DNA of 64,000 bases from Candidatus Woesearchaeota archaeon (GTDB lineage: Archaea > Nanobdellota > Nanobdellia > Woesearchaeales > UBA10216). A program made the position numbers and the translations under genes. This document shows, piece after piece, positions 2,968-64,000 of this stretch. The stretch is from NCBI GenBank assembly GCA_016192945.1, contig JACPTE010000021.1:3989-67988 (forward strand). Direction: 5' to 3'. How positions within the stretch are numbered: the stretch's first letter is position 1; each line of letters begins with the position of its first letter. The notes beneath the pieces were generated by a model. It saw only the letters and a program-made list of their open reading frames with translations, did not search any database and was not told where the DNA came from.

Positions 2968-3309
2968 ATGCTAAAGAACACCAGCAGGGAGACAACATTA
3001 AGCAGCCATCCTATACTTATACAAAGCATTCTCGGAAAGGCAAAGGGGCTGATGTTCTGCACGAGAGTAATAAACCCTCTGATATTTGTTTTCAGCCGTG
3101 AGCGGGCAATAAGCCTGCACATGATGTTCGTCTTATGTACAATTGATGTCATGCTCCTGGACAGCAATAAAAGGGTGGTTGAGCTGAAAAAGAGCCTCAG
3201 GCCATTCACACTATATAATAGCAGGAAGAGGGCAAGATACGTGATTGAGCTGGCTGAGGGGGAAATAGCGCGGAGCATGACAAGGACAGGGGATAAAATT
3301 TATTTTTAA
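2968..3309 (+). CDS. DUF192 (COG1430) family protein
   Basis: KGLMF...SLHMMFVLCTIDVMLLDSNKRVVEL...LRPF...ARYVIELAEGEIARSMTRTGDKIYF follows the DUF192 pattern RGLM / IHMxFMxxxIDvvFlD / yvLElpaG...vGD as I remember it. A TATA-like TTTTATTTAAAT lies at 2944-2955. Confidence 0.7.
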   Translation: MLKNTSRETTLSSHPILIQSILGKAKGLMFCTRVINPLIFVFSRERAISLHMMFVLCTIDVMLLDSNKRVVELKKSLRPFTLYNSRKRARYVIELAEGEIARSMTRTGDKIYF

Positions 3310-3411
3310 AGTCTTTCTAATGATTATACGAACTATTTCCGAAAAGAAAATATGGCAGAAATATTTATATAGACGACCTGGAGATAACATTACTCTCGGA
3401 AGAAGATTTAA

Positions 3412-3580
3412 GGGGACGTCGTATAAGGGATGAAAATCCGTACAACCTGGCATTATCGCTGGCTCCAGCGATGGAGCGATGAGCCTTGTGCGATGATTGA
3501 TTTATTGGCGATACCAGCTGATCGGAGTGCATGAAAGGTAGTTCTCCTTCATGTCCGAAATTCAAATCTCCGCGTCCCCA
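3412..3580 (+). tRNA. Candidate tRNA-Trp(CCA) interrupted by two or three introns
   Basis: Acceptor stem GGGGACG (3412-3418) / CGTCCCC (3573-3579), 7/7 bp, plus discriminator A3580, then CTTTTTTT. Anticodon arm GCTGG (3458-3462) / CCAGC (3514-3518), giving loop CU-CCA-G..A once 3469-3512 is removed (canonical 37/38 site). The T arm CGGAG (3523-3527) + TTCAAAT (3561-3567) + CTCCG (3568-3572) forms only once 3528-3560 is removed. D stem GTAT/GTAC (3421-3424 / 3440-3443). Unresolved: a 15-nt D loop and 13 extra nt (3445-3457). Confidence 0.55.
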
Positions 3581-3656
3581 CTTTTTTTCCATATACTTCC
3601 CAGAAAATAATAAAAGATTTAAAGAGGCTGCTTGTAAAGAATAGAAAAGAGGACGC

Positions 3657-4811
3657 ATGAAAACCAGATTTTTGGAGTCAATAGCAATTCTTGTCGGAGC
3701 AACCATTGGGGCTGGCATTCTTGGGATACCCTATGTTGTGTCAAAGGCAGGATTCTGGACCGGAATCCTCGTAATACTTGTCCTGGGGGCTGCAACCCTG
3801 CTCATAAACCTGTACATGGGAGAGATAGCCCTGAGAACCAGGGGAAACCACCAACTCGCAGGATATGCTGAAAAATACACAGGCAGGATTGGCAAAAACC
3901 TTGCAAGCTGCTTCATGATACTAGGGATTTATGGCGCGCTGACAGCTTACCTTATCGGTGTTGGAAACTCCGCCTCTGCAATCCTGGGGGGAAACACAAT
4001 CCAGTATTCCCTGATATTCTTCATAATAGTGGGGCTTGTAGTGTGGAGGGGCATAAAATCAATAGGCAAGGCAGAGCTTTTGATAACAGCAGCCCTGATA
4101 CTTGTAGTTATAGCGATTCCAGCATTCTCAGCAGGCAGAATGAGCCTGAATAATTTCAGCGGGTTTGACATATACCGGATAATGATACCATACGGGGTTG
4201 TCCTGTTCGCATTCATGGGAACGCCAGCAATACCTGCAATGAAAGAGGAGCTAAACAGCAACAGGAAGCTCCTCAGGAACGCAATAATAATAGGCACACT
4301 CATACCCCTGGTTGTTTACCTGCTATTCCCTGCGGCAGTCATAGGGCTTCTTGGGAACCTTGACAAGCTTGGCGATGGCGAGAGAATAGCAACAGTTGCG
4401 CTAAGCAGGCATATAAGGCCTGAAATAGGAATACTCGCCAATGCCTTTGCAGTGCTTGCAATGACGACTTCATTCATAGCGTTGAGCTTCGCCCTTGGAA
4501 AGACATTCCAGGAAGACTACAGGCTCAGCAGGAAAAAATCATTTGCGATTACATTTGCTGTGCCGATTTCAATATTCATGATAAACGCATTTGTAAGCGT
4601 CACCAACTTCATCAGCATACTTGCCATTGTAGGGGCTGTGACAGGGGGAATCACAGGAATCCTGATAGTTGCTATGCACTACAAGGCTATCAAATCAGGC
4701 GATAGAAAGCCTGAATATTCAATCCCAAACAACATGCTGATAATGGCAATCCTCATAATTATATTTGCCGCAGGGATACTGAACGAGTTGCTGGGAATAA
4801 TAATCCATTAA
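3657..4811 (+). CDS. Amino-acid permease (AAAP / Trp-Tyr permease-like, ~11 TM)
   Basis: N-terminus ...SIAILVGATIGAGILGIPYVVSKAGF..., typical of amino-acid/auxin and aromatic amino-acid permeases. Hydrophobic throughout. Confidence 0.75.
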   Translation: MKTRFLESIAILVGATIGAGILGIPYVVSKAGFWTGILVILVLGAATLLINLYMGEIALRTRGNHQLAGYAEKYTGRIGKNLASCFMILGIYGALTAYLIGVGNSASAILGGNTIQYSLIFFIIVGLVVWRGIKSIGKAELLITAALILVVIAIPAFSAGRMSLNNFSGFDIYRIMIPYGVVLFAFMGTPAIPAMKEELNSNRKLLRNAIIIGTLIPLVVYLLFPAAVIGLLGNLDKLGDGERIATVALSRHIRPEIGILANAFAVLAMTTSFIALSFALGKTFQEDYRLSRKKSFAITFAVPISIFMINAFVSVTNFISILAIVGAVTGGITGILIVAMHYKAIKSGDRKPEYSIPNNMLIMAILIIIFAAGILNELLGIIIH

Positions 4812-4830
4812 CCAGAAAAATCGTTATAGC

Positions 4831-6276
4831 CTATTCCTTCTTTTTCATCCTTTCGCTCAGCTCAAGAATGAATATTATCACTGCAAGGATTACAAATCCT
4901 GCCAGGAAATATGCATAATAATCAACAATGAACGACCTGGCCATTGAAAAAGCCCCTGATGCAGGCGAGCTGGAAAGATTTCCCGGAGAGGAGGTTATGC
5001 TCAGGTTTGAGGAAGACTTATTCAGGGAGAATAAGGAAAAAAAGCCTTTCAGGCTGCCTGAAATGTTCAGCCCAGGGCCTGATGGGCTGGCATTCTGGGA
5101 TGGAGCTGCTGGAGCGGCAGGAGGCGGAGCAACAACACCAGCATTGGCTGAATCATTCCTGTAAAGGAATGAGAAAAAATTCAAAGAATCATTGATAGAA
5201 TAATTATTCCTGGAATAGTTTGAGCTGCTCTGGTTTATACCGACAGCCACAGGGCCGAACACCATCATGAAGACTGCTGACACTGCTATCATTGCAGCAA
5301 GTATTAAGAGGATGATGCTGACTAAATTCCAATCCTCCCTGCCTTGTTCAGCCTCATCTTTCAAGGGGAATCTTTTCGCCCATCTGTATTGCCTACCTGA
5401 ATCAGCTGCTGATGGCCTTTTCCTGTCAATCAGCATGGAAGCCTCTTTCTTTGATGAAAGCCTGAATACCGCAACAACCACCAGAAGAATTGCCAGAACA
5501 GCCGGGAAATACAAAAGGGAATCTGAAAGGTATTTCACAGCACCTGAGCCAGAATCCCTCTTGAGCGCTGAAACATTCCCTGAACAGGAAGCGTTTATCA
5601 TCATTGCAAGGCGCACTTTTTCAGAAAACCTGCTTCGCTCCCCATTCACAATCAAGTCAAAAGAGCCGGGCTTTGCATCGCAGGCAGGTGTTGCAAACAC
5701 GCTGACAAGCCCTGTTTCCCCCGAAGCCAAATCCGCCTTTTCAGGAATGACATAAGCATAATCAGATGGCAGGCCGGCAACTGAGAAGGAAAAAGTGTCA
5801 GAATAGCTGCCTGTGTTGTTAATCACAAGCCCGTATGAAAGCGTGCTGCACCTGCAGCCGGAATTATTGGCAGCAGCAACATAAACATCCATGTTCCTGC
5901 AGCCTGAAACCCTCACAGACTGCTTCAGGACCTTTAGCTCGTTATAATTCGTCCTTATTTCAAGCGAAAGGGGATAAACGCCATCACTGCCGCAGGGTGC
6001 GCTTATAAACTCTGAGACAACAGACTCCTCCCCTGGCCCGAGAATGAAGCTTGAGGGATAAACAGAAATAAACCCTGATGCCTCACCACCTGGTGACAGG
6101 AAAAAAGCCCTTGAGGAATCCCCGTAGTTCCTGAAGAAAACCCTCTGCTCAGAAACGCTGCAGCCGCATACGCTGCTTACAGATTCGGAATACGCTGTGA
6201 AATCAGGCGCAGCGGATGCTATGCCTGCGAACAAAATTAGCAAAAACAACGCTGGAATAAAGCCTTTTCTCAACAT
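4831..6276 (-). CDS. Hypothetical secreted/membrane-anchored surface protein
   Basis: Track ORF is 4831..6348. I prefer ATG 6276 (MLRKGFIPALFLLILFAGIASA, signal-like), which has GGGGGTG about 8 nt upstream. Cys-containing extracellular domains, internal TM segments, and a Pro/Ala/Ser tail with N-x-S/T sites. No family recognised. Confidence 0.6.
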   Translation of the reverse strand: MLRKGFIPALFLLILFAGIASAAPDFTAYSESVSSVCGCSVSEQRVFFRNYGDSSRAFFLSPGGEASGFISVYPSSFILGPGEESVVSEFISAPCGSDGVYPLSLEIRTNYNELKVLKQSVRVSGCRNMDVYVAAANNSGCRCSTLSYGLVINNTGSYSDTFSFSVAGLPSDYAYVIPEKADLASGETGLVSVFATPACDAKPGSFDLIVNGERSRFSEKVRLAMMINASCSGNVSALKRDSGSGAVKYLSDSLLYFPAVLAILLVVVAVFRLSSKKEASMLIDRKRPSAADSGRQYRWAKRFPLKDEAEQGREDWNLVSIILLILAAMIAVSAVFMMVFGPVAVGINQSSSNYSRNNYSINDSLNFFSFLYRNDSANAGVVAPPPAAPAAPSQNASPSGPGLNISGSLKGFFSLFSLNKSSSNLSITSSPGNLSSSPASGAFSMARSFIVDYYAYFLAGFVILAVIIFILELSERMKKKE

Positions 6277-6351: not shown

Positions 6352-7668
6352 CTAATAATATGTTTTCGGCTCCCCGCTGCTATCCTCTTCTTCATCTTTG
6401 CCTTTCATTCTGTTGACGATTACCAATAGTGCTACCAGCACAAGAAGCGCAACAAGAACAATAAGCCCAATCTCAAGGTAGCGCTTTACTCCCCCGCCAA
6501 TGCCAATTCCCTGCTGTTCTGAGGCTGTATTGCTGCTGCTGACAATGGCTTTCATATTGACCTGCTCCAATACGCGGCCAGACTGGTCTTTTATTGAAAC
6601 AGCAAACATCCTTTCGCCAACAGGGGCATCAGGGCCTGCTGACACATACAGCGAGACAGTCTTGATTTCGCCAGCACCTGTCACAACAACATTGCTTGGG
6701 CTGAACCTTGATGTTGCCCAGCTGTCAAGCCCGTCAACAGACAATGTGTATGTCTTTGAAGTTGAGCCTGCATTATTAATAGTTATCGGATAAACCCCGC
6801 CAATCCCGCCGGCGACCAAAGTCTGGGGCTCGCTGCTCACGATGACAAAAGCCTTCTCATCAACAGCCTTGGGGCATGTATCACTGCCAACAACATCCAC
6901 CAGCTTTGTTGAAGTCACCTTATCAAAGCCCTCATTATACTCAACTGTAACCCTCACATTATAACCAGCAGGCTTTGCACAGGCAGGAATTCTCAAGAAA
7001 AGCTGCTCTGAGGATGTGCTTTCCCCACCCTCAATCTTGTCAATGAAGTCAGATGACGAAACTCCCAAATCAGGGATGCCTGCCTTTATCTTGATGCCCT
7101 CCTCATCCTGCTGGCCCATGTTCTTGATCCTCACTACCAATGACAATGTCCTGCCAGCGATGACAGATTCCGGGCTTAATGCCACATCCTTTATAACCAA
7201 ATTATGCCTTGGAACATCCACCTTAAGCCTGTAATTCTGGACAAGCTCATCCCCGTTCCTGTCTGTAACCAGAATCCTCAAAAGATAATCATCCTCCTGT
7301 GCAAGCTCAGAAAGCCTTAACTTAAGTATCTTGACATAAGTAACACCATTCTCAACATCAAACAACGGTGTAACGTCTGAGATTGGGTTATCCCTGTTGA
7401 ACTCAAAGCCGCTTATGAAGGCGTGAATCTCAACATCAGAGCCGTTTGAAATTCCTGAAGCCCTTACCTTTACATTGAAATCCTGGCCTCTTACCATGTC
7501 AAGCCTGTTTGAATCAGAAGTAAAAACCTCATCGCCGTTTACCTCAACACTATCTATAACTACAGGCACTGCGTGGGCAGCAGCCGAAAAAATCACCATG
7601 AAAACAGCCATTAAGAACAAACCAGCCAAAGATTTTTTGTTCATATTACCCATACCCCCAAAAGTCAT
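6352..7668 (-). CDS. CARDB-like S-layer/surface protein with C-terminal TM anchor
   Basis: Signal-like KKSLAGLFLMAVFMVIFSAAAHA (probable true start ATG 7644). CARDB-like stretch NLVIKDVALSPESVIAGRTLSLVVRIKNMGQQDEEG. C-terminal LIVLVALLVLVALLVIV followed by an acidic tail. Confidence 0.6.
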   Translation of the reverse strand: MTFGGMGNMNKKSLAGLFLMAVFMVIFSAAAHAVPVVIDSVEVNGDEVFTSDSNRLDMVRGQDFNVKVRASGISNGSDVEIHAFISGFEFNRDNPISDVTPLFDVENGVTYVKILKLRLSELAQEDDYLLRILVTDRNGDELVQNYRLKVDVPRHNLVIKDVALSPESVIAGRTLSLVVRIKNMGQQDEEGIKIKAGIPDLGVSSSDFIDKIEGGESTSSEQLFLRIPACAKPAGYNVRVTVEYNEGFDKVTSTKLVDVVGSDTCPKAVDEKAFVIVSSEPQTLVAGGIGGVYPITINNAGSTSKTYTLSVDGLDSWATSRFSPSNVVVTGAGEIKTVSLYVSAGPDAPVGERMFAVSIKDQSGRVLEQVNMKAIVSSSNTASEQQGIGIGGGVKRYLEIGLIVLVALLVLVALLVIVNRMKGKDEEEDSSGEPKTYY

Positions 7669-16296: not shown

Positions 16297-16974
16297 TTAC
16301 CTCGTGAATTTCCACCAGACCATTTTCATAACTATGGCAAGGCCATCAAGGGGTGTGGTGCCCTTGTACTTGTCCACGTAAATCGTCTCAACAGGAATCT
16401 GCCTGAACCTGAGCCTGTGCTTGCCCACGAGGGCTATCATCTCTGACTCCACACTGTAGTCATGGGCTGTCCACCTTATATCCTGGTATGCCTGCCTTGT
16501 GAAAGCCCTGTAACCGCATTGCGTGTCCCTGATGCTTATCCTGAAAAGCAGCTTGATTGCAGTTCCAAGCATCCAGTTGCCTACTTTCATAACCAGAGGC
16601 ATGCGGCTGTTCAGTTCCCTGTAACCGAAGACTATATCCGCACCATCCAATGCCCTTATGAAGCTGGGGATTTCATCAGGCTCGTGCTGGGCATCAGAAT
16701 CAAGCACGATTATCGCGTCAGCTCCCCTGCTTATTGCGTAATCGCAGCCTGTTTTCAATGCAGCCCCCTTGCCTATGTTTATGATATGCCTGAGAACAGC
16801 AACACCAGTCTTCATTGCCAGCGAATAAGTCCTGTCCCTGCTCCCGTCATCAACAACTATTATCCTTTCACAACTTATGTGGCTCAGGGCTTTTTCTATC
16901 ACGCCGGATATGTGCCTTTCCTCATTGTATGCCGGTATTACAGCAAAAATCCTCATTTTTCCCTGATTGCTCAT
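16297..16974 (-). CDS. GT2 glycosyltransferase (polyprenyl-phosphate sugar synthase-like)
   Basis: IFAVIPAYNEE...IIVVDDGSRDRT...IVLDSDAQH. Its ATG overlaps the aglB stop (ATGA at 16971-16974). Confidence 0.8.
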   Translation of the reverse strand: MSNQGKMRIFAVIPAYNEERHISGVIEKALSHISCERIIVVDDGSRDRTYSLAMKTGVAVLRHIINIGKGAALKTGCDYAISRGADAIIVLDSDAQHEPDEIPSFIRALDGADIVFGYRELNSRMPLVMKVGNWMLGTAIKLLFRISIRDTQCGYRAFTRQAYQDIRWTAHDYSVESEMIALVGKHRLRFRQIPVETIYVDKYKGTTPLDGLAIVMKMVWWKFTR

Positions 16975-19900
16975 TTTACCTTTTCTATCCTGACCTTAAA
17001 GTAAAGTGTCATGTTCCCCAAGGGATGAGCTGCCGGATTAGTGCCATAAGCCTTCTCAGGCGGAACTTTAATGACTGCCTCATCCCCCTTCTTCAGCCCA
17101 ATCATCTTCTCCTCAAGGCCTGGAATTATCGTCCTGTTTCCAACCCTGAATGTGAATGGGCTTGAATCCTGGTCAAACTTGGAGTCCTTCGTGACTTTCT
17201 TGCTTATCCAGTTGCTTATTGAGCTGTCAAAAACCCTGCCATCCTCCAGATAACCTATGTAGTTGAATGTAACCTCATCGCCAGAGCTGATGTTCCTGCT
17301 TAAAAGCTCACGCTTTATCAAAGGCTCCCCGCCATTCCAGTCAACCTTGTAAACATAAATGTCAGCTCCTGTAATGCTCCTCTGGTGTGTAAGCAGCCTG
17401 AAATGACGCAGGCTGTGCCCCTCCATCAGGAACATCCTTGTAAACATGCTTGCATTCAGCTCAGGGGCTGAAACTACCATCCTGTAATTATCACCCTCAG
17501 GTATCACCGTAGCTGTAAGGTCAAACCCTGAGAGTGTGTTCTCCTCAACAGTTTTCTCAGCCACATCAGTATCAGTAAGGTATGCGACCCCCTTCAGGTT
17601 CTTTGGGCCTCCAGGGGCATTCATAAGGTATACCTCATTGCTTGAAATGTTGATTTCCAGGTCTAATGGCTGCCTCTGGTCCCCATTCAGGTATATCCTG
17701 TCGCACTGTGCAACATCCCCCTTCCTCTGGCAGGATGGGAAGCCCATGAATCCGGGCCATGGCGAAACCCACGAATTCGCCTGCGAATCAGAGAATGACT
17801 GGATATCAAAATAAGTCTGCTCTGCCTTGTCTTTGGTGTAATTGAATTTTTGCTGCATCTCGGCAACAGCCTCATCCTGGCTCTTTGACCTCAGCTTCTG
17901 CCATATGTACGCCCGCTCAAAGTTCCAGCTTCCAAAATGAGCCCACACTCCAGCCTTGCCTATCATGTCCTCAGATGCTATCACAAATGCCTCTGGCGGA
18001 TTGCAGTGGGTGTAGTTAAGCACGCTTTCTGACTGCTCTGGACTCATGCCGTATTTTTTTGCAAGCACTTCCCCTGCATCAGCCCTGTCCTTTTCAAATA
18101 TGCTGTAAAGGACGGTTACTGACTTAAGGGTATCCCCCTTGTTTGTTTTCTGGACCTCATCAAAGGCATTATTCCCCCCGCAGTCAAGCATCCTCAGGAT
18201 TCCAACAGCCATATCCTCGTTGTCTGTCTCAAGCAGCTTCCCAACCCAATGAGCCTGGGGGCTGCCCTGCGTTGTGCCATCAAAAGTAACAGGCCTCTCT
18301 GCCAGCGCCTTGAAGTGATGCCCGAAATCCCACCATGACGTGATTATAGCTGTCTTGCCTGAATTGTCCCTTATTGAGGTTAATGCGTTAAACCACGCGT
18401 CGTTAATCATTGGGGAGTCCTGCCTGGCGATGCTCAATGAAACTCCCAGCACGTCTGTAGGGAAAATAAGTATCAGCAGCGAGATTAACAGGAGAGAAAT
18501 GCTTGTGACGGTCCTGTCTATCTTAAGCTCCCTTGACAGGATGTTATTAAGGTTCCTGTACAGGAAGCCAATCGCTATGCCAATCGCTATGCCAAAAGCA
18601 GGGGCAATCAGCATCATGAACCGCTGCCCCTTGATGCTTGCATAAATCGTGACAATATACCATAGTATGAGCAGCACTGAAAGCTTCATGTCTATCGGGT
18701 CAGACCTCAGAGCAGCATAAACACCCCTGACAATAACAGGAATGGACAGCAGGGCAATGAACGTGAGCTGGGAGAAGCTATCCCTCAACAGAATCAAAAC
18801 CAGCCACCAGAGCGCTGCAAGCGCAATGAACATAAGCTCGGTCGTGTCAACCTTCCTCTTGGTCATAGCAAGCATTATTCCCAAAAGGGAGAGGAAGAAA
18901 AGGAAGACGCCCCCCACATTGTCTATTATCATGTTTACGCTACCCTCATTAAGCTCGGCAACGGTTGTAAGGACATTAGGCCATAATGTCGGCTCAACAG
19001 GATTCTTTATCTTAGCAAAACCGAGGGCAGTAATCGGGGGCTGGAGATAATCAGCTCCAGAGATTAACACTACGAAAATCCCTGATGACAGCATGAATGC
19101 CAACCCAACAACAGCCAATGCCCTGACATCAGGCCTCAGCAGGAAGCCCCTCGGATTCGCCCTGAGCTCCCTGAAATGGGTCACAACCAGATATGCGCCG
19201 TATATTGCTGATGAGGCTATCAGGAAGTCAAAGATAAACCACCAGCCACCCCAAAATCTTGTGTAAAGCCCGACTGAAAGCCCTGCAAGGGCTGAAACCA
19301 GCAGCTGCCACCTTAGCTTCCTTGATTCAATAGCCGAAAGGAACAGGAAAGTCACAAGAATGGAAAAAAACACCACCCATGTGTCAGAGTCGCCGTGGCC
19401 ATACAGGCTTCTGGAAAGGAATGAGGCGTTCAAAGACATGAATGCCGCAGCAAAAAACCCGCCAACATCACCTGCGAGCCTCCTTGCAATCAGAAAAACC
19501 AGCACAGCTGAAATGGCTGAAACTATCACCGGGTAAATCATCTCAGCCTGCATCAGTGTAATCTCTGAGCTGAAAACCCTCAATAACCTGAAAAGGAGGG
19601 CTATTGAATAAGGATGGAATGTGTCTTCCGGCTCTACGAACCTGCCATCAGGGGCAAGCTGGAATGTATCATAGCTTTTCCCATCCCTAAGCACATCTCC
19701 AGGGTAGCCGTGGTCAAGTATGTTCCTTGCGTACCTGAGCCAGTAGTAAGGGTCTATGTCAGGCATGTAAAGGTTGCCCTTCTCGTCCTCAAAAAACGAC
19801 TTGTAATAGTCAGAGGTAATCTTTATCTGCTGACTTATGCTCATCTGCTGCCCAGCATACTGGCCTGTCTTGAACACATACACATCGCTGGAAATGGCCT

Positions 19901-20474
19901 TCCTGAACTCCTCATCCACAATCCCATTCTTGTTCTCATTAGGCAAGTTGGGATATTGCGAGTCCACAAGGTTTCCTAAATCGCCCCTGATAAGGTTATA
20001 GACTGACTCTGTTGCAGAATTGTCAGCATACACCATGTATGCTGGCAGCATCCTCACATAAACGCAAAGCCCTACAACAAATAAGATAGCCAGAACCGGA
20101 ATAATCAGGCCGCTCTTCTCGCGAAGAAATGCAACTGCCGCCCTCGCATCAATTGAGATGTCTTCCTCTTCCTTTTTTAACCCGGGCTCATGATGCTCTC
20201 CATGCTGCTTCCCAACATGAGACTTGGTAACTCCTGATTCCTTTTTCCTGAACAATCCTGAGAAATCAATGCTTATCTCATCATCATGCTCCTCTTGAGC
20301 AGAATCATGATGCTCCTTGTGCCCCTTATGCTCTTCATGCCTTTCAGCTGATTCACCAGGCTGACTCTTATGGGAAGATGCCTTCTTTCCGAATGGCCAA
20401 AGCTTCTTAAGGTCTATGCTTATCTCATCATCGCTATCGTGCTTTCCATCCTGCTCATCATCCATTTTCCCCAA
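16971..20474 (-). CDS. aglB: Oligosaccharyltransferase AglB/STT3 with His-rich N-terminal extension and C-terminal FKBP-type PPIase domain
   Basis: First-loop DIDPYYW, multi-TM core and the WWDFGH (WWDxG) motif. The last ~105 aa (~16974-17303) read GDEVTFNYIGYLEDGRVFDSS...FTFRVGNRTIIPGLEEKMIGLKKGDEAVIKVPPEKAYG, an FKBP signature. Confidence 0.85.
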   Translation of the reverse strand: MGKMDDEQDGKHDSDDEISIDLKKLWPFGKKASSHKSQPGESAERHEEHKGHKEHHDSAQEEHDDEISIDFSGLFRKKESGVTKSHVGKQHGEHHEPGLKKEEEDISIDARAAVAFLREKSGLIIPVLAILFVVGLCVYVRMLPAYMVYADNSATESVYNLIRGDLGNLVDSQYPNLPNENKNGIVDEEFRKAISSDVYVFKTGQYAGQQMSISQQIKITSDYYKSFFEDEKGNLYMPDIDPYYWLRYARNILDHGYPGDVLRDGKSYDTFQLAPDGRFVEPEDTFHPYSIALLFRLLRVFSSEITLMQAEMIYPVIVSAISAVLVFLIARRLAGDVGGFFAAAFMSLNASFLSRSLYGHGDSDTWVVFFSILVTFLFLSAIESRKLRWQLLVSALAGLSVGLYTRFWGGWWFIFDFLIASSAIYGAYLVVTHFRELRANPRGFLLRPDVRALAVVGLAFMLSSGIFVVLISGADYLQPPITALGFAKIKNPVEPTLWPNVLTTVAELNEGSVNMIIDNVGGVFLFFLSLLGIMLAMTKRKVDTTELMFIALAALWWLVLILLRDSFSQLTFIALLSIPVIVRGVYAALRSDPIDMKLSVLLILWYIVTIYASIKGQRFMMLIAPAFGIAIGIAIGFLYRNLNNILSRELKIDRTVTSISLLLISLLILIFPTDVLGVSLSIARQDSPMINDAWFNALTSIRDNSGKTAIITSWWDFGHHFKALAERPVTFDGTTQGSPQAHWVGKLLETDNEDMAVGILRMLDCGGNNAFDEVQKTNKGDTLKSVTVLYSIFEKDRADAGEVLAKKYGMSPEQSESVLNYTHCNPPEAFVIASEDMIGKAGVWAHFGSWNFERAYIWQKLRSKSQDEAVAEMQQKFNYTKDKAEQTYFDIQSFSDSQANSWVSPWPGFMGFPSCQRKGDVAQCDRIYLNGDQRQPLDLEINISSNEVYLMNAPGGPKNLKGVAYLTDTDVAEKTVEENTLSGFDLTATVIPEGDNYRMVVSAPELNASMFTRMFLMEGHSLRHFRLLTHQRSITGADIYVYKVDWNGGEPLIKRELLSRNISSGDEVTFNYIGYLEDGRVFDSSISNWISKKVTKDSKFDQDSSPFTFRVGNRTIIPGLEEKMIGLKKGDEAVIKVPPEKAYGTNPAAHPLGNMTLYFKVRIEKVK

Positions 20475-59064: not shown

Positions 59065-60017
59065 AAAAAGGCATACTGCTGTATCTGGTCGGGTTTGCTG
59101 TTTTTTTCTACCTGCTTACAAGGATAAACATTGGAGAGACTGTAAGGATAATCATTGATTCCAACAAGCTGTTCATCCTGCTGGCAGCCATTCTGGTCCT
59201 TGTTATTCCATTCCTGGAGGCCTTGAGGTGGAGATTCATAATGAGACAGCTTGATTTTGATTACAGCTTCAGGGATGTTTTTTCCATGCTCGCCTCCTCG
59301 CTTTACATAGGGTTTGTAACTCCTGCAAGGCTTGGGGAGTTTGCTAGGGTTTCTTTTTTCAGGGGCAGGAGCCTCGGGGCTTCTTTCTTCAGCGTTTTTA
59401 TGGACCGGTTTTCAGACCTGATTTTCATTGCCGGAGTGGGATACATAGGCATGTTCTTTTTTGTGAGCGCCCTTGGCCAGCAGATTTTCTGGGTTTCTGT
59501 TGCAATCATCGGGAGCTTCCTTTTTGCTGCCATTGCAGTCCTGAGGAGGGATTTCGTGAGGCTGTTCCTCAGTTTTGTCTTTCACAGGATTATCCCTGAG
59601 AAGTTCAAGCCAGAATTGAAGACGATTTTCTATGATTTTTACAGGAGCTTCTTTCGCCTGCTGAACTTCAGGTCTGTGCTGGTGATTCTGGCGCTGACTA
59701 TCCTCTCATGGCTGCTTTATTATGCTGCTGTTTACCTGCTTGCCCTGGCGATAGGGATAAACATCTCTTTCATTCACATGGCCACTGTTGTAAGCGTTGC
59801 CAGCTTCTTGTCAATTCTTCCAATAAGCATCTCTGGGATTGGGACCAGGGATGCGGCGTTTGTGTTCTTTTTTGGGCTTCTCAGCCTGAAAAGCGAGTTT
59901 GCAATAGCACTCTCAACATTAGTCCTTATCCTTATGGTGCTTGTTGCTGTTTGCTGCTTCCCGTTTTACTTAATGAAGCCTGTCAATTTCCTTTTCTTCC
60001 AGGAGAAGGATAGATGA
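59061..60017 (+). CDS. UPF0104 / LPG-synthase-TM (flippase-like) membrane protein, second copy
   Basis: ...LEALRWRFIM...YIGFVTPARLGEFARVSFF... (P-x-R-x-GE motif). GTG 59061 preferred; the track start 58953 lies inside the previous ORF. Confidence 0.6.
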   Translation: MKKGILLYLVGFAVFFYLLTRINIGETVRIIIDSNKLFILLAAILVLVIPFLEALRWRFIMRQLDFDYSFRDVFSMLASSLYIGFVTPARLGEFARVSFFRGRSLGASFFSVFMDRFSDLIFIAGVGYIGMFFFVSALGQQIFWVSVAIIGSFLFAAIAVLRRDFVRLFLSFVFHRIIPEKFKPELKTIFYDFYRSFFRLLNFRSVLVILALTILSWLLYYAAVYLLALAIGINISFIHMATVVSVASFLSILPISISGIGTRDAAFVFFFGLLSLKSEFAIALSTLVLILMVLVAVCCFPFYLMKPVNFLFFQEKDR

Positions 60018-60026
60018 GGGATTAGT

Positions 60027-60073
60027 GATAAAAATGTATACTTTTATCCGTGATTTATGGATAAAAATGTATA
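60027..60073. repeat. Two copies of a 14-nt direct repeat plus an 8-bp inverted repeat at the border of the A/T-rich island
   Basis: GATAAAAATGTATA at 60027-60040 and 60060-60073. TTTTATCC / GGATAAAA lies between them. Confidence 0.5.
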
Positions 60074-60188
60074 TTTGGGTTGGCAGCTTCAAGAAGGTTG
60101 ATGAGTCAATAAGTTGTTCTTTTTTACACGAATAATCTTATGTGACATCTATGTAAAAAATTAGTCTCCTAATTCAGCAATATCACTT

Positions 60189-60680
60189 TTAGAATTTCCA
60201 CCTTTCTGCCCTGAATAATTCTACAATATCTATGGCTTCAATTGATTTCTGGGAACAGACATAGGGGATTTTTACTTGAGTTCCTCTTAGTTTTTCTTCT
60301 GTGACCACTATTCTTTTGATGGTAAGTATCGTCTTTTGTGGTCTTGAAGATAGTTCTATTGCCAAAGCTATGACCCAAGGATCTGCATCATATTTTCTTT
60401 CTGTATCAATTAAAGAAGGATAATCTTTAAGGATTTCCTGCACAAGTTCAATCTGCCTTAGTGTGGGTGCTTTAAACATCTTTTTTTGTGTTTTTGCCCA
60501 TTTGCTTAGCATATCGTCATTCTGATTTATCTCATTATGGACTTCTCTTGGAGCGATTAGGCGGTTATTATCTACAAGAAACTTCAATTTGTCCCAAATA
60601 CTTGGAAATACATCGATTGGGTTATTCCTGTTCAACTTCACTAAGGAGGAAGTATCTATGATGTACATATTATCCGTCAT
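60189..60680 (-). CDS. DUF4411 (PIN-like nuclease fold) protein
   Basis: MYIIDTSSLVKL...NRLIAPREVHNEI...DADPWVIALA matches my recollection of DUF4411. The ATG overlaps the upstream stop (ATGA). Confidence 0.6.
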   Translation of the reverse strand: MTDNMYIIDTSSLVKLNRNNPIDVFPSIWDKLKFLVDNNRLIAPREVHNEINQNDDMLSKWAKTQKKMFKAPTLRQIELVQEILKDYPSLIDTERKYDADPWVIALAIELSSRPQKTILTIKRIVVTEEKLRGTQVKIPYVCSQKSIEAIDIVELFRAERWKF

Positions 60681-61837
60681 TTTTTTGCCTTGGAGAGTAC
60701 CTTGTCAAAGCTCTTTGACTTTATGGACAGGTAGTTTAATGCATCAGTATACGTGATATAATCTCTGTCGTAATTATTGGCCACTAGAGAAACGAATTTA
60801 TTACCAATTTCAGAAAGGCATTTAACTTCAGAACGTATTCCTCCACCAGTTCCTTCTTCAGGTTCTTTTTTTGGTTTGATTTCTTCCTTCTTGAACCTTG
60901 CCAAAATTGCATCATAATCGGCTTTTTCAATATATCCTAATTTGAGCATGTTTAATAGAAGCATAGCCTTGCTTACTTTAAACCTATTAGAGAGTGTTTT
61001 AAGCATTTCCTTTGAAGTTAAATTGGCTTTATTTGTTTCAAACGTGTTTTTTGCCACTTCTTTTGGCAGCAGGTACGTTGATGCGAATTCGTTACACCAT
61101 TGCTCAACATTGTCATTGTAGGAGTGTGTTGCATCTGGGAGATCTATGACTGATTCTCCAAGCAAGATATGTGCAAATTCGTGCATTAATGAGAAAACTC
61201 TTGCTTCAATATTGTCTTTGGTATTAACAACTACCACTGATGGAGATTCATCCACAAAGGCAAATCCTCTGGCATCTTCCACAGGCATTGAGAATTGGAA
61301 CAAGAAAATATTCATATCTTCAAGAATGTCTCTTAAATAGTTGAATAGTTCATAAGATGTTTTGAATCTTCTTTGTTTATCTTCAGTTAAATTGAATTTT
61401 TCTCTAAATTTAAGGGCAGTTTTTTCGGGATCATCAGAGATACTTGCTCTTTCAAGTTTTGATTTTGTTTCATATTCAATATTCTTTGATAGTTCCTTGC
61501 TTAATTCCTGCAATCGTCTTGCCTTTCTCATGACAAGAATGGTCTTTTTATCGAACTTGTTAGTTTCATTGGGAAGCATCCTGTAGTCTTTCGGCTTAGG
61601 CTTTTCTGTCAGAGGTTTTGACAATAAAAATGATGCAACTGGCCTTTTGAATATGACTGAAAGCTCTTCCAGCTGCCTAAAAGAGGGTTTCTTCTCGCCA
61701 GACTCCATCTTTTCAATATTCTGAGAACTAGTCTTGAGCCTTTTGGCTATTTCTTCCCTCGTCCATCCCGAACTCTCAATAAGCCATTTCAGGACAGACA
61801 GCTCAACATCCACAGCAATTGGTTTTGTTCTTGCCAT
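60677..61837 (-). CDS. Fused XRE-type HTH + ImmA/IrrE (COG2856, DUF955) zinc metallopeptidase
   Basis: N-terminal ...GWTREEIAKRLKTSSQNIEKMESGEKKPSFRQLEELS (HTH). Central SLMHEFAHILLGE (HExxH). Confidence 0.7.
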   Translation of the reverse strand: MARTKPIAVDVELSVLKWLIESSGWTREEIAKRLKTSSQNIEKMESGEKKPSFRQLEELSVIFKRPVASFLLSKPLTEKPKPKDYRMLPNETNKFDKKTILVMRKARRLQELSKELSKNIEYETKSKLERASISDDPEKTALKFREKFNLTEDKQRRFKTSYELFNYLRDILEDMNIFLFQFSMPVEDARGFAFVDESPSVVVVNTKDNIEARVFSLMHEFAHILLGESVIDLPDATHSYNDNVEQWCNEFASTYLLPKEVAKNTFETNKANLTSKEMLKTLSNRFKVSKAMLLLNMLKLGYIEKADYDAILARFKKEEIKPKKEPEEGTGGGIRSEVKCLSEIGNKFVSLVANNYDRDYITYTDALNYLSIKSKSFDKVLSKAKK

Positions 61838-61914
61838 TTTATTTCAATCTCTATTTTTTCTTTATTTCAAGCTTTCCTCAAAAATTTGCTTTTCTTGGTT
61901 CATGGAAGATTTAT

Positions 61915-62232
61915 TCAAGTTTTCGCTAAAATTATTTTCACAATTACGTCTATACCTTTTTCAACTCCTTTTTCAATCAATTTCCTTATCAGTATCTTCA
62001 AAATGCTTTCATCATTATTTGAAATTGCGACTTTAATTTCCTCTAAATCTTCTCTTATTCTTTCGTTTTCTGGTTTTATTATTTCCTCATTTATTGATTT
62101 TATTATCTCTTTTTTGAAGTTATCAACCGCAATCCCAACAATTCTGCCATGTTCAATCTTTAAATCAGAAGTATCTGATATAATTTTTCCAAATTGATCT
62201 GTCATTACTTTTTTATTAAATTCAATAGTCAT
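61915..62232 (-). CDS. Small Ile/Lys/Glu-rich ORFan, translationally coupled to the methyltransferase
   Basis: 105 aa. The ATG overlaps the methyltransferase stop (62229-62232). Predicted helical. No motif recognised. Confidence 0.4.
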   Translation of the reverse strand: MTIEFNKKVMTDQFGKIISDTSDLKIEHGRIVGIAVDNFKKEIIKSINEEIIKPENERIREDLEEIKVAISNNDESILKILIRKLIEKGVEKGIDVIVKIILAKT

Positions 62233-64000
62233 TTCAACGAATCCTCAATAATCTTCTTTTCCTCTTCAGTTATTCCGTATAGTTTATAGACTTCTTTGTC
62301 TATCTCGTTATCTAATTTTTGGATTTCTTTTTCAATACGGACTTTTTCATCGGTTTGTTTATCCTTAATTTCAATTAATCTCCTATTTAATTCTATCAAT
62401 GTTTTTGCATTATTAGATATTGTTTTATTGTAGCAACTAATAATTGGTAATCTCCTCAATTCTTTTCCACTTACATGATTAGTGTTACTAAATACTTTAA
62501 AGTAGAGATTGATTAATTTTGAGTTTAATATTCCTAAATGATAAAAAATATCTGTATTTTCTTTTAATGAATATAAGTAGTTACATGTATGTCCACAATT
62601 TGCCCCTTTCTCAAGAATAGTTGCTTTTATTCTTCTTTTTTGAGCCATGTTTGAGACTTCTTGTAGCACAATTCTATTCTCGTCGGAATCATCTCTTTTA
62701 AGAGAAGTATATACCACAAAACTTTCTTTGCTTTCTTGTTTATCAATTTGGTATCTCTGCAAATCATTTCCTCGAATTAAAGGTCTCGTTTTATCTTCGG
62801 ATTTATTCCGAAGATATTTTTTATAGACTGTTAAATTTACTTCTCCTTGGTTTATTGTAAAGAAGTTCTCAAAACTATCCTTTCCTTTATCCTTTATCTT
62901 TGACACTAATTTAACCAAATCATCTTTTGTTATTATTGAAAGATTATCTAATTCAAAGAATGTTTTTTGTTTAATTCTACCTGTGACAAAAGAATCAAAA
63001 TCTGATTTTTTTGTAACATCATCCATTAATATAACCGTGTTATTCATTACATTCTTAGAGTTTGTATCCTTTTTTAGAATTATAACGGTGGTTGCTTGTG
63101 TTACTCCTTCAAATACTTTTAAAGACTCTGGAAGTACCAAAATTTTAATTATTTTGGTCTCTTTTAAGATTTTTTCTCTCAGAGCATGTGAATTATTGTC
63201 GGATAACCATGTATTAGGTACTATAAATCCTAATACCCCTTCGTTTCTTAATAGGCTCATCCCTTTTTCAATAAAGAGACGATATGAATTCATTTTGCCT
63301 CTATTTGTACTATATTTATTCAAAAGAAAATCTTTTACTTCTTCTAAATCAGCACCATAAGGCGGATTCCCAATAACAACATCAAACCCACCATTAGCCA
63401 TTATATCTTTAAATTGTTCTTCCCATTTGAAAGCCCTATCTCCTGCAATAGCAGAATCATCAATCAATGAATTTCCAACCTTAATATTTTCCTGTAATGT
63501 TGGCAATCTATGTTTTTTCTCTGTAGTTTTTAATAATAAATTTAACTGGGCTATTTCAACAGCTTTAGAGTCTAAATCAACTCCAAAGATATTTTCTTTT
63601 AAGATTTCAACTTTTCTTCCATAGTTTGCAGAAGCTCCAGTTAAGTCAAGCTTTGTCTGATCTACTTCGCCATTTTTCTTTTTGTCAAGAGTAACAAGGT
63701 AATCAAAAGCTTTCATTAAGAAAGAGCCTGAGCCGCAAGCAGGGTCTAAAATCTTGATGGTTTTCAAATCGAATGTTTTGTCTTTGGCTAATTCGCCAAC
63801 TGTATTTTTAACAATGTAATCCACTACATAAGTAGGAGTGTAATATATTCCCTGCTCTTTTCTGTGTGCTTTTCCTTCGGCGAGTTTGGCCCTTTTATCT
63901 GTTTTCTTTAGAATATGCCCTAAATACTGCTCGTATATGTTACCTAAAACATCAGCGTCAATTGCAGAAAAATCATAATGCACAACATTATCACTTGTAT
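62229..64000 (-). CDS. Eco57I/TaqI-family N6-adenine DNA methyltransferase (type IIG or type II R-M component), 5' end outside the window
   Basis: ...DVLGNIYEQYL..., ILDPACGSGSFL (motif I), VIGNPPYG (motif IV), TaqI-like C-terminal region (LGILNSKLINLYFK), C-terminal ...LYGITEEEKKIIE. The frame remains open to base 64000 (..TSDNVVHYDF..). Confidence 0.75.
   Translation of the reverse strand, partial: TSDNVVHYDFSAIDADVLGNIYEQYLGHILKKTDKRAKLAEGKAHRKEQGIYYTPTYVVDYIVKNTVGELAKDKTFDLKTIKILDPACGSGSFLMKAFDYLVTLDKKKNGEVDQTKLDLTGASANYGRKVEILKENIFGVDLDSKAVEIAQLNLLLKTTEKKHRLPTLQENIKVGNSLIDDSAIAGDRAFKWEEQFKDIMANGGFDVVIGNPPYGADLEEVKDFLLNKYSTNRGKMNSYRLFIEKGMSLLRNEGVLGFIVPNTWLSDNNSHALREKILKETKIIKILVLPESLKVFEGVTQATTVIILKKDTNSKNVMNNTVILMDDVTKKSDFDSFVTGRIKQKTFFELDNLSIITKDDLVKLVSKIKDKGKDSFENFFTINQGEVNLTVYKKYLRNKSEDKTRPLIRGNDLQRYQIDKQESKESFVVYTSLKRDDSDENRIVLQEVSNMAQKRRIKATILEKGANCGHTCNYLYSLKENTDIFYHLGILNSKLINLYFKVFSNTNHVSGKELRRLPIISCYNKTISNNAKTLIELNRRLIEIKDKQTDEKVRIEKEIQKLDNEIDKEVYKLYGITEEEKKIIEDSLK

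Follow-up and report, generated by a model that had tools for sequence, protein, structure and literature searches.

A likely tRNA-Trp(CCA) gene with three bulge-helix-bulge introns, overlooked by standard tRNA finders, in a Woesearchaeota-like archaeal contig

The window analysed here is a stretch of 64,000 nucleotides of contig JACPTE010000021.1, in which positions 3412 to 3580 of the forward strand most probably constitute a working tRNA-Trp(CCA) gene with three protein-spliced introns of the bulge-helix-bulge (BHB) type. A probability of about 0.87 is given to this reading, judged from the sequence. Removal of the three introns (3427-3445, 3469-3512 and 3528-3560) leaves a 73-nt product that ARAGORN calls as tRNA-Trp(CCA) at default settings, and the same 73-nt call is returned for the spliced orthologues on two metagenome contigs, L009 and L008. 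The exon-intron layout, the BHB geometry, the cloverleaf, a kink-turn (K-turn) template in the second intron and the orthology are all shown by the sequence and by comparison between contigs, and the layout is as follows:

3412..3580 (+), predicted gene for pre-tRNA-Trp(CCA), 169 nt, of which four exons make up 73 nt and three introns 96 nt
3412..3426 (+), exon 1: acceptor 5' strand, U8, C9, D-stem 5' strand GUAU, A14, A15
3427..3445 (+), intron 1, D loop, position 15/16: 19 nt, relaxed BHB
3446..3468 (+), exon 2: D loop CCUGGCA, D-stem 3' strand UUAU, C26, GCUGG, C32 U33 C34 C35 A36 G37
3469..3512 (+), intron 2, canonical position 37/38: 44 nt, relaxed BHB
3513..3527 (+), exon 3: A38, anticodon-stem 3' strand CCAGC, variable loop UGAU, T-stem 5' strand CGGAG
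3528..3560 (+), intron 3, T arm, position 53/54: 33 nt, strict hBHBh' (BHB with both flanking helices)
3561..3580 (+), exon 4: T loop UUCAAAU, CUCCG, acceptor 3' strand CGUCCCC, discriminator A73

In the spliced product, GGGGACG (3412-3418) pairs with CGTCCCC (3573-3579) to form the acceptor stem, which is followed by the discriminator A3580. The anticodon stem GCTGG (3458-3462)/CCAGC (3514-3518) presents the loop CUCCAGA after removal of 3469-3512, and the T stem CGGAG (3523-3527)/CTCCG (3568-3572) closes on TTCAAAT after removal of 3528-3560. The D arm left by removal of intron 1 reads GUAU-AACCUGGCA-UUAU and carries A14, A15, G18, G19 and A21. All four stems have the standard lengths of a class I cloverleaf, with U8, A14, A15:U48, G18G19, A21, U33, G53, U54U55C56, A58 and C61 all placed. 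A73 and the G1-C72 pair are identity elements of tRNA-Trp. Both are present here, as A3580 and G3412-C3579, together with the anticodon C34 C35 A36 at 3465-3467, as expected of an archaeal tRNA-Trp; the 3' CCA is absent from the encoded sequence. The 169-nt stretch also folds better than 200 of 200 dinucleotide shuffles (z = -3.0). A preliminary description of this DNA had already recognised the acceptor stem, the discriminator A, the T-tract and the anticodon and T arms, and had correctly delimited the introns at 37/38 (44 nt) and 53/54 (33 nt).

In the canonical archaeal BHB, a 4-bp helix is flanked by two bulges of 3 nt, one in each strand, and cleavage follows the second base of each bulge (PMC4090602); this geometry was used as the test for the intron borders. 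The cloverleaf requires six cuts, and each of them lies directly 3' of the second base in a 3-nt bulge. The strict motif of intron 3 comprises an outer helix UGA (3519-3521)/UCA (3562-3564), a central helix UCGG (3522-3525)/CCGA (3555-3558), the bulges AG↓U (3526-3528) and AA↓U (3559-3561), where the arrow marks the cut, and a long inner hairpin (3529-3554). Its central helix and hairpin appear in both the minimum free energy (MFE) and the centroid folds, and the hairpin pairing is kept in L009 through paired changes (A-U to G-C). The hairpin CATGAAAGG/CCTTCATG and the TCGGA/TCCGA pairing reported for this intron in the preliminary description are both present, and the BHB-like frame proposed there stands, but its register was one base off: the helix consists of the four pairs TCGG/CCGA rather than five, and the supposed fifth pair, A3526-T3554, is lost in L009 and in a further contig, L004, in which T3554 is replaced by A.

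In intron 2 the anticodon stem serves as the outer helix of the motif, the central helix is CUCC (3463-3466)/GGCG (3507-3510), and the bulges are AG↓C and AU↓A. Intron 1 is framed by the central helix GUAU (3421-3424)/GUAC (3440-3443) and by the bulges AA↓G (3425-3427) and AA↓C (3444-3446), which enclose the inner hairpin GGAU-GAAA-AUCC (3428-3439). Removal of 3425-3443 or 3426-3444 gives a product identical to that obtained by removal of 3427-3445.

That the D region is interrupted had been proposed before, with a third intron placed at 3445-3457; an interruption is indeed found there, but at 3427-3445. In the earlier layout, GTAT (3421-3424) and GTAC (3440-3443) form the D stem, the D loop has 15 nt, and 3445-3457 (13 nt) is a mini-intron between the D and anticodon stems. 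The two strands do pair, and the loop between them contains GG, yet this arrangement is scarcely credible. The 13 nt cannot be framed as a BHB (CGUA against AUUA fails), and they are the D loop and D-stem 3' strand, supplying the CCUGGCA loop with G18, G19 and A21. They are identical in the window, L009 and L008, while the loops and spacers of the true introns vary. The supposed D loop, in turn, differs in length and sequence between orthologues (GAAA in the window, UUUAA in L009 and GAUUA in L008 for the hairpin loop, with the first intron base also varying and the helices kept), and the entire 19-nt block is missing from a fourth contig, L015. The sequences spliced in the earlier way, with two or three removals, receive no default call from ARAGORN, and a relaxed threshold yields a 'Cys(aca)' artefact.

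The orthologues were obtained in two ways. An exact search of a metagenome collection with exon 2 returned two contigs (L008 and L009), and L015 was found via homologues of the DUF192 gene that lies upstream of the tRNA. A search of species-representative genomes with the 3' 20-mer gave no tRNA-Trp orthologue; it returned a tRNA-Phe gene from a Nanoarchaeota metagenome-assembled genome (MAG), described below as L006, and one unrelated tRNA-Met. The introns of the four genes compare as follows:

Window: D-loop intron of 19 nt at 15/16; canonical intron of 44 nt; T-arm intron of 33 nt at 53/54
L009: D-loop intron present, with loop UUUAA; canonical intron about 20% different; T-arm intron at 53/54, likewise about 20% different, its hairpin preserved by paired changes
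L008: D-loop intron present, with a new loop and first base; canonical intron of 46 nt; T-arm intron of 21 nt at 59/60
L015: no D-loop intron; canonical intron of 48 nt, found directly by ARAGORN -i; no T-arm intron

The intron at 37/38 is thus common to all four genes. The T-arm intron of L008 at its different site is again a perfect hBHBh', in which the T stem is the outer helix, UUCA/UGAA the central helix and UAAGA-GAAA-UCUUA the inner hairpin. The exons of L009 are identical to those of the window at 73 of 73 positions, though the flanking proteins are only about 60% identical; L008 shares the 23-nt exon 2 exactly and differs once in exon 1 (C9A). The order DUF192 gene, tRNA gene and permease gene is found in the window and L015 and, in rearranged form, in L009, and in L008 the DUF192 gene is followed by tRNA-Trp, without the permease. 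The proteins of this shared neighbourhood are only about 30-60% identical between contigs.

In the spliced alignment, which contains only three distinct sequences, 95% of the cells pair, and both partners differ in seven of the 21 pairs (acceptor stem two, anticodon stem two, T stem three). These values are reached by two of 500 shuffles, and slid alignments have 38-52% of cells paired with 0-1 double changes. Comparison supplies the best reason to reject chance as the origin of the locus, since three other contigs carry the gene in the same neighbourhood with compensatory stem changes. Variation is concentrated in the hairpin loops and intron spacers, as the three-intron model expects, and the covariation of the cloverleaf, the variability of the true introns and the invariance of the 13 nt together leave no other model that fits. 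In more distant Woesearchaeota (L010-L014, L016 and L018-L021), no tRNA-Trp was found beside the DUF192 gene by motif scan, ARAGORN or reading of the flanks; contig L017 ends 14 nt after its DUF192 gene.

Several features of the individual contigs stand apart from this comparison. In L009, a tRNA cassette of about 250 bp comprising promoter, gene and T run (6828-7083, corresponding to window 3335-3588) is inverted relative to the DUF192, permease and downstream genes, with additional spacer on both sides. The gene on L015 (1372-1490, forward strand; ENA ERZ27247960 k141_4929968, a single short contig) has the anticodon CAA instead of CCA, for which the possible explanations are a mistake in sequencing or assembly, variation within the population, and a genuine switch of anticodon in a tRNA body of the Trp type. 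Contig L004 (Logan SRR12113390) is 98.9% identical to window 3415-5125 over 1.7 kb, with 15 of the 17 mismatches inside introns 2 and 3; these two introns are identical to the L009 alleles, and the D-loop intron and flanks are of the window type. The mosaic is explained either by exchange of introns via exon homology or by a chimeric assembly. It was set aside as evidence of exchange, as the alleles share identical runs of 36 and 34 nt (3434-3469 and 3555-3588) at which a chimeric join is possible; such a join would be permitted by assembly at k = 31, which we assume for the Logan contigs. Contigs L002, L003 and L005 all start exactly at window position 3555. Two Logan contigs (L001 1-18 and L004 1-12) open with an apparent Nextera transposase adapter (..ATGTGTATAAGAGACAG), to which genomic sequence is joined; the outermost bases of contigs of this sort are not genomic. 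A diversity-generating retroelement as the source of the intron differences was rejected because the differences are not confined to adenines and, in the hairpin, compensate one another.

A number of observations weigh against a working three-intron gene. As the preliminary description anticipated, standard tools miss the unspliced locus: ARAGORN at default settings called no tRNA in the whole 64-kb window, an Rfam search at gathering scores gave no family for the locus, the tRNA family RF00005 included, and at E <= 10 there was no tRNA match over 3300-3700, the only matches being weak, C/D-snoRNA-like and located over GCGAUGAUUGA. The lack of an RF00005 match is attributed to the 96 nt of introns that interrupt the tRNA. 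ARAGORN with intron options was likewise silent on a 301-nt excerpt (3350-3650), and a call made there at a relaxed threshold was rejected as spurious. The same program accepted 193 of 594 trial deletions of the D region as Trp in a brute-force scan, a tolerance which means that the borders of intron 1 rest on BHB geometry and genome comparison instead. The motif around intron 1 has no outer helix and is therefore classed as relaxed, the central helix of intron 2 contains a conserved U.C mismatch (three of four pairs) and its inner helix is weak and poorly conserved, and the mature D stem (G.U, U-A, A-U, U.U) has one wobble and one mismatch among four pairs. A conformer with all three BHBs at once lies at -42 to -47.5 kcal/mol, 13-18 kcal/mol above the MFE of -60.4 kcal/mol. 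No gene for EndA, fibrillarin, Nop5 or L7Ae was found among the 41 open reading frames (ORFs) of at least 180 aa scanned in the window; a short alpha4-type EndA, estimated at about 170-180 aa, could fall below this cut-off.

The silence of the standard tools and the weak D stem would also suit a decaying or silent pseudogene that has accumulated insertions, with a working tRNA-Trp encoded elsewhere. This is highly unlikely in view of the complete exon identity with L009 amid diverged flanking proteins, and the stem differences in L008 and L015 are compensatory pairs only. The TATA box and T run are kept as well, and every insertion lies in a BHB-type frame with its cuts in register, which random insertions would not do. 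A different proposal is that the D-loop and T-arm insertions are unspliced and retained as expansion hairpins of an unusual tRNA or tRNA-like RNA, for which it can be said that the D-loop insertion has no outer helix and is nearly invariant among the three close orthologues. Retention would part the T stem from the T loop at 53/54, break the D loop between A15 and C16 and destroy the contacts of G18 and G19 with the T loop; both insertions are missing in L015, and that of L008 lies at a different T-arm site in a perfect hBHBh' frame. The chance that the insertions are retained is accordingly rated as very remote, and a spliced, working tRNA-Trp gene is preferred.

Two sequence elements flank the predicted gene:

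3364..3371 (+), candidate archaeal TATA box TTTATATA, about 48 nt upstream of G1, with a promoter role predicted from its sequence
3582..3588 (+), run of seven T, by its sequence a likely archaeal oligo-T terminator, also present in L009

A box of the TTTAWATA type is also found upstream of the orthologues in L009, L008 and L015. The distance of the TATA box from G1 implies a 5' leader of about 15-18 nt, which would have to be removed by RNase P. We infer from these elements and from the BHB motifs a pathway of transcription, cleavage, ligation and methylation. Transcription would proceed from the TATA box and stop at the T run, RNase P and RNase Z would trim the ends of the pre-tRNA, and EndA would cut the six sites, each after the second base of a 3-nt bulge, with the T-arm motif as a strict substrate and the D-loop and anticodon motifs as relaxed ones. 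An RtcB-type ligase would then join the exons and CCA would be added. Since the conformer with all BHBs formed together lies so far above the MFE, splicing is likely to be stepwise or assisted by proteins; stepwise splicing has been shown for a three-intron tRNA of Cyanidioschyzon merolae (PMC3728597). The pathway possibly also includes 2'-O-methylation of C34 (Cm34) by L7Ae, Nop5 and fibrillarin, directed by the K-turn and a UGGAG element of intron 2.

The elements of intron 2 on which this last step would depend are:

3472..3476 (+), antisense element UGGAG, complementary to C32-A36 (CUCCA)
3479..3498 (+), K-turn (box D'/C'-like), a sequence-level template

The K-turn is composed of AUGA (3479-3482), a GC/GC stem closing a 5-nt loop (3483-3491), the bulge GAU (3492-3494), GA (3495-3496) and UU (3497-3498). 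The template shared by the four orthologues runs 3 nt, UGGAG, 2 variable nt, [A/C]UGA, GC, a loop of 4-9 nt, GC, R-A-U, GA, and UU or AG, and continues with a variable spacer, the 3' strand of the central BHB helix and AU. This gives the geometry of a K-turn, with a Watson-Crick stem, a 3-nt bulge, tandem G.A/A.G pairs, U.U (or A-U) and then A-U (or C-G), and the D'1-C'6 pair covaries, being A-U in the three close orthologues and C-G in L015. The D-type element comes first (5') and is separated by a loop from the C-type element, which is the order found in the internal D'/C' motif of archaeal box C/D small RNAs (sRNAs). UGGAG is invariant in the four orthologues while its flanks vary, and it forms a hairpin with CUCCA in the MFE fold of the window sequence. 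The L015 intron retains UGGAG as a match to CUCCA, which against its CAA anticodon produces an A35xG mismatch.

Introns of archaeal tRNA-Trp are known to nest a box C/D RNA, and that of Haloferax volcanii selects C34 and U39 for 2'-O-methylation (PMC4090602). Cm34 is on record for tRNA-Trp from several archaea, where its supposed role is to keep UGA from being misread (PMC7668247). In the present intron, the fixed 2-nt spacing between UGGAG and box D' sets G3474, the fifth base upstream of D', against C34, and this exact register is found in all four orthologues, with a duplex of only 5-6 bp. No terminal box C or D was found in intron 2, as there is no box C before the guide and no conserved box D after it; the CUGA at 3518-3521 belongs to the exons and lacks conservation in L015. 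Since the D'/C'-type internal K-turn stands alone, the intron is not counted among full box C/D sRNAs.

Whether intron 2 really guides methylation of C34 is given about even odds. The single K-turn, the 5-6 bp duplex and the failure to find either another K-turn or a position-39 guide in the intron count against guidance and are the reasons for this rating; usual box C/D guide duplexes have about 10-12 bp. The same features, with the exonic CUGA and the missing boxes at the intron ends, would suit an L7Ae-binding or folding element that aids or times BHB formation, or a relic of a full box C/D intron. A role of this kind is given a little under an even chance. It would leave unaccounted for that the 2-nt spacing is fixed in four orthologues though both bases vary, with C34 kept at the fifth position, and Cm34 is the very modification known to be guided by tRNA-Trp introns (PMC4090602).

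If the intron serves in both methylation and splicing, the precursor must refold between the two, since the UGGAG-CUCCA hairpin and the central helix of the BHB are mutually exclusive; a similar refolding from methylation to splicing is said to have been proposed for Haloferax. A more ambitious suggestion is that the 44-nt intron is a minimal single-K-turn (half-mer) cis guide that makes Cm34 before BHB refolding and splicing, and that tRNA introns are being gained and moved in this lineage at an unusually high rate (53/54, 59/60 or none in the T arm). This combined suggestion, drawn from sequence comparison, is tentative and rather unlikely to hold in full. If true, such a half-mer would be smaller than any other natural guide of the box C/D type known to us.

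Sugahara et al. reportedly described tRNA genes with multiple introns in Thermoproteales and other Crenarchaeota in 2007 and 2008. The present gene resembles them in its short BHB-type introns at canonical and non-canonical positions, of which there are up to three per gene in that group (PMC4033280), in the combination of strict and relaxed motifs within one precursor, and in being missed by ordinary tRNA finders. It differs from them in its host, which is a Woesearchaeota-like member of DPANN. Within the same superphylum, disrupted tRNA genes have been described in ARMAN-1 and ARMAN-2, which have an epsilon2 EndA (PMC3239211), and in Pacearchaeota and Woesearchaeota (PMC5829648), where non-canonical and multiple introns are linked to EndA variants of broad specificity. 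Kaneta et al. surveyed four DPANN genomes, including one of Woesearchaeota and one of Pacearchaeota, and found tRNA genes to be disrupted more often in several DPANN lineages, alongside EndA variants with an additional loop; the incomplete tRNA sets often reported for DPANN genomes probably hide disrupted genes (PMC5829648).

The closest parallel for intron 2 is the guide intron of euryarchaeal pre-tRNA-Trp in Haloferax volcanii and others (PMC4090602), which belongs to the same tRNA, occupies the same position, and likewise has a K-turn and an antisense element that pairs with the anticodon loop, with C34 as the predicted target. The euryarchaeal intron selects both C34 and U39, and tRNA-Trp introns have a median length of 65 nt, whereas the introns described here have 44-48 nt, one K-turn and one 5-nt antisense element, and position 39 is a C without a guide. 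For the arrangement of the three introns, the parallel is the tRNA-Ile(UAU) of C. merolae, whose three BHB introns also lie in the D region, at 37/38 and in the T region (PMC3728597). The C. merolae gene is nuclear, eukaryotic and specific for another tRNA, and its ordered splicing intermediates were verified by RT-PCR, whereas the present gene is known from DNA sequence.

Multi-intron BHB tRNA genes and methylation guides in tRNA-Trp introns are thus already known (PMC4033280, PMC4090602). The tRNA-Trp gene described here, its orthologues and their differing intron positions are unreported in the cited literature, and the gene is a new example in a lineage in which disrupted tRNA genes were predicted but little documented. 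It provides a worked example of the idea that such genes are hidden (PMC5829648), in that an essential single-codon tRNA missed by ARAGORN and Rfam is recovered when splice sites are made explicit. The four orthologues capture gain, loss or movement of tRNA introns within one gene neighbourhood, and a reduced form of the intron-borne Cm34 guide of Euryarchaeota may survive in DPANN. A missing tRNA-Trp annotation should not be taken to imply host dependence or recoding before BHB-aware searches have been made. A T-loop motif scan of the window for further hidden tRNAs gave no match.

The tRNA-Phe gene returned by the 3' 20-mer search (L006, 1485-1681, forward strand, in the Nanoarchaeota MAG contig JAHJRB010000059.1) is more heavily interrupted. 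For ARAGORN at default settings to call a perfect 74-nt tRNA-Phe(GAA) from its 197 nt, five pieces have to be taken out: 30 nt at 4/5, where the central helix is formed by two leader bases and G1G2; 21 nt at 18/19 (AGCC/GGCU); 29 nt at 31/32 or 32/33; 12 nt at 37/38; and 31 nt at 53/54 (CCGG/CCGG). Between the two interruptions of the anticodon loop lies a micro-exon of 5-6 nt, and no BHB was found for the 29-nt interruption. Five removals exceed the three introns given as the known maximum per tRNA gene in a 2014 review (PMC4033280).

The identity of the host is indicated by two proteins of the window. The best named relatives of its prolyl-tRNA synthetase (ProRS) are from Candidatus Woesearchaeota and Nanoarchaeota (43-46% identity), the closest unnamed match being only 50% identical, and those of its DUF192 protein are from Candidatus Woesearchaeota (40-44% identity). 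These relationships suggest that the host is a poorly sampled DPANN lineage of the Woesearchaeota/Nanoarchaeota type and not a member of Thermoproteales, towards which the preliminary description had pointed. The window encodes an oligosaccharyltransferase of the AglB/STT3 type, the archaeal-type ProRS and many glycosylation genes.

The gene immediately downstream of the tRNA (3657-4811, forward strand) encodes a permease that matches the Aa_trans and Trp_Tyr_perm families, with the tRNA-Trp gene 40-76 nt upstream. The arrangement recurs in L015, where the permease gene begins at 1529, and the two genes are also adjacent in L009. The adjacency of tRNA-Trp and permease may be coincidental, and no regulatory element was found.

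Elsewhere in the window, the reverse strand at 16971-20474 encodes a protein of 1167 aa that combines an STT3/AglB domain with a C-terminal peptidyl-prolyl isomerase domain of the FKBP type, and its gene sits in a long run of glycosyltransferase, aminotransferase and methyltransferase genes. The segment at 60001-64000 has a G+C content of 32%, against 41-49% in the rest of the window.

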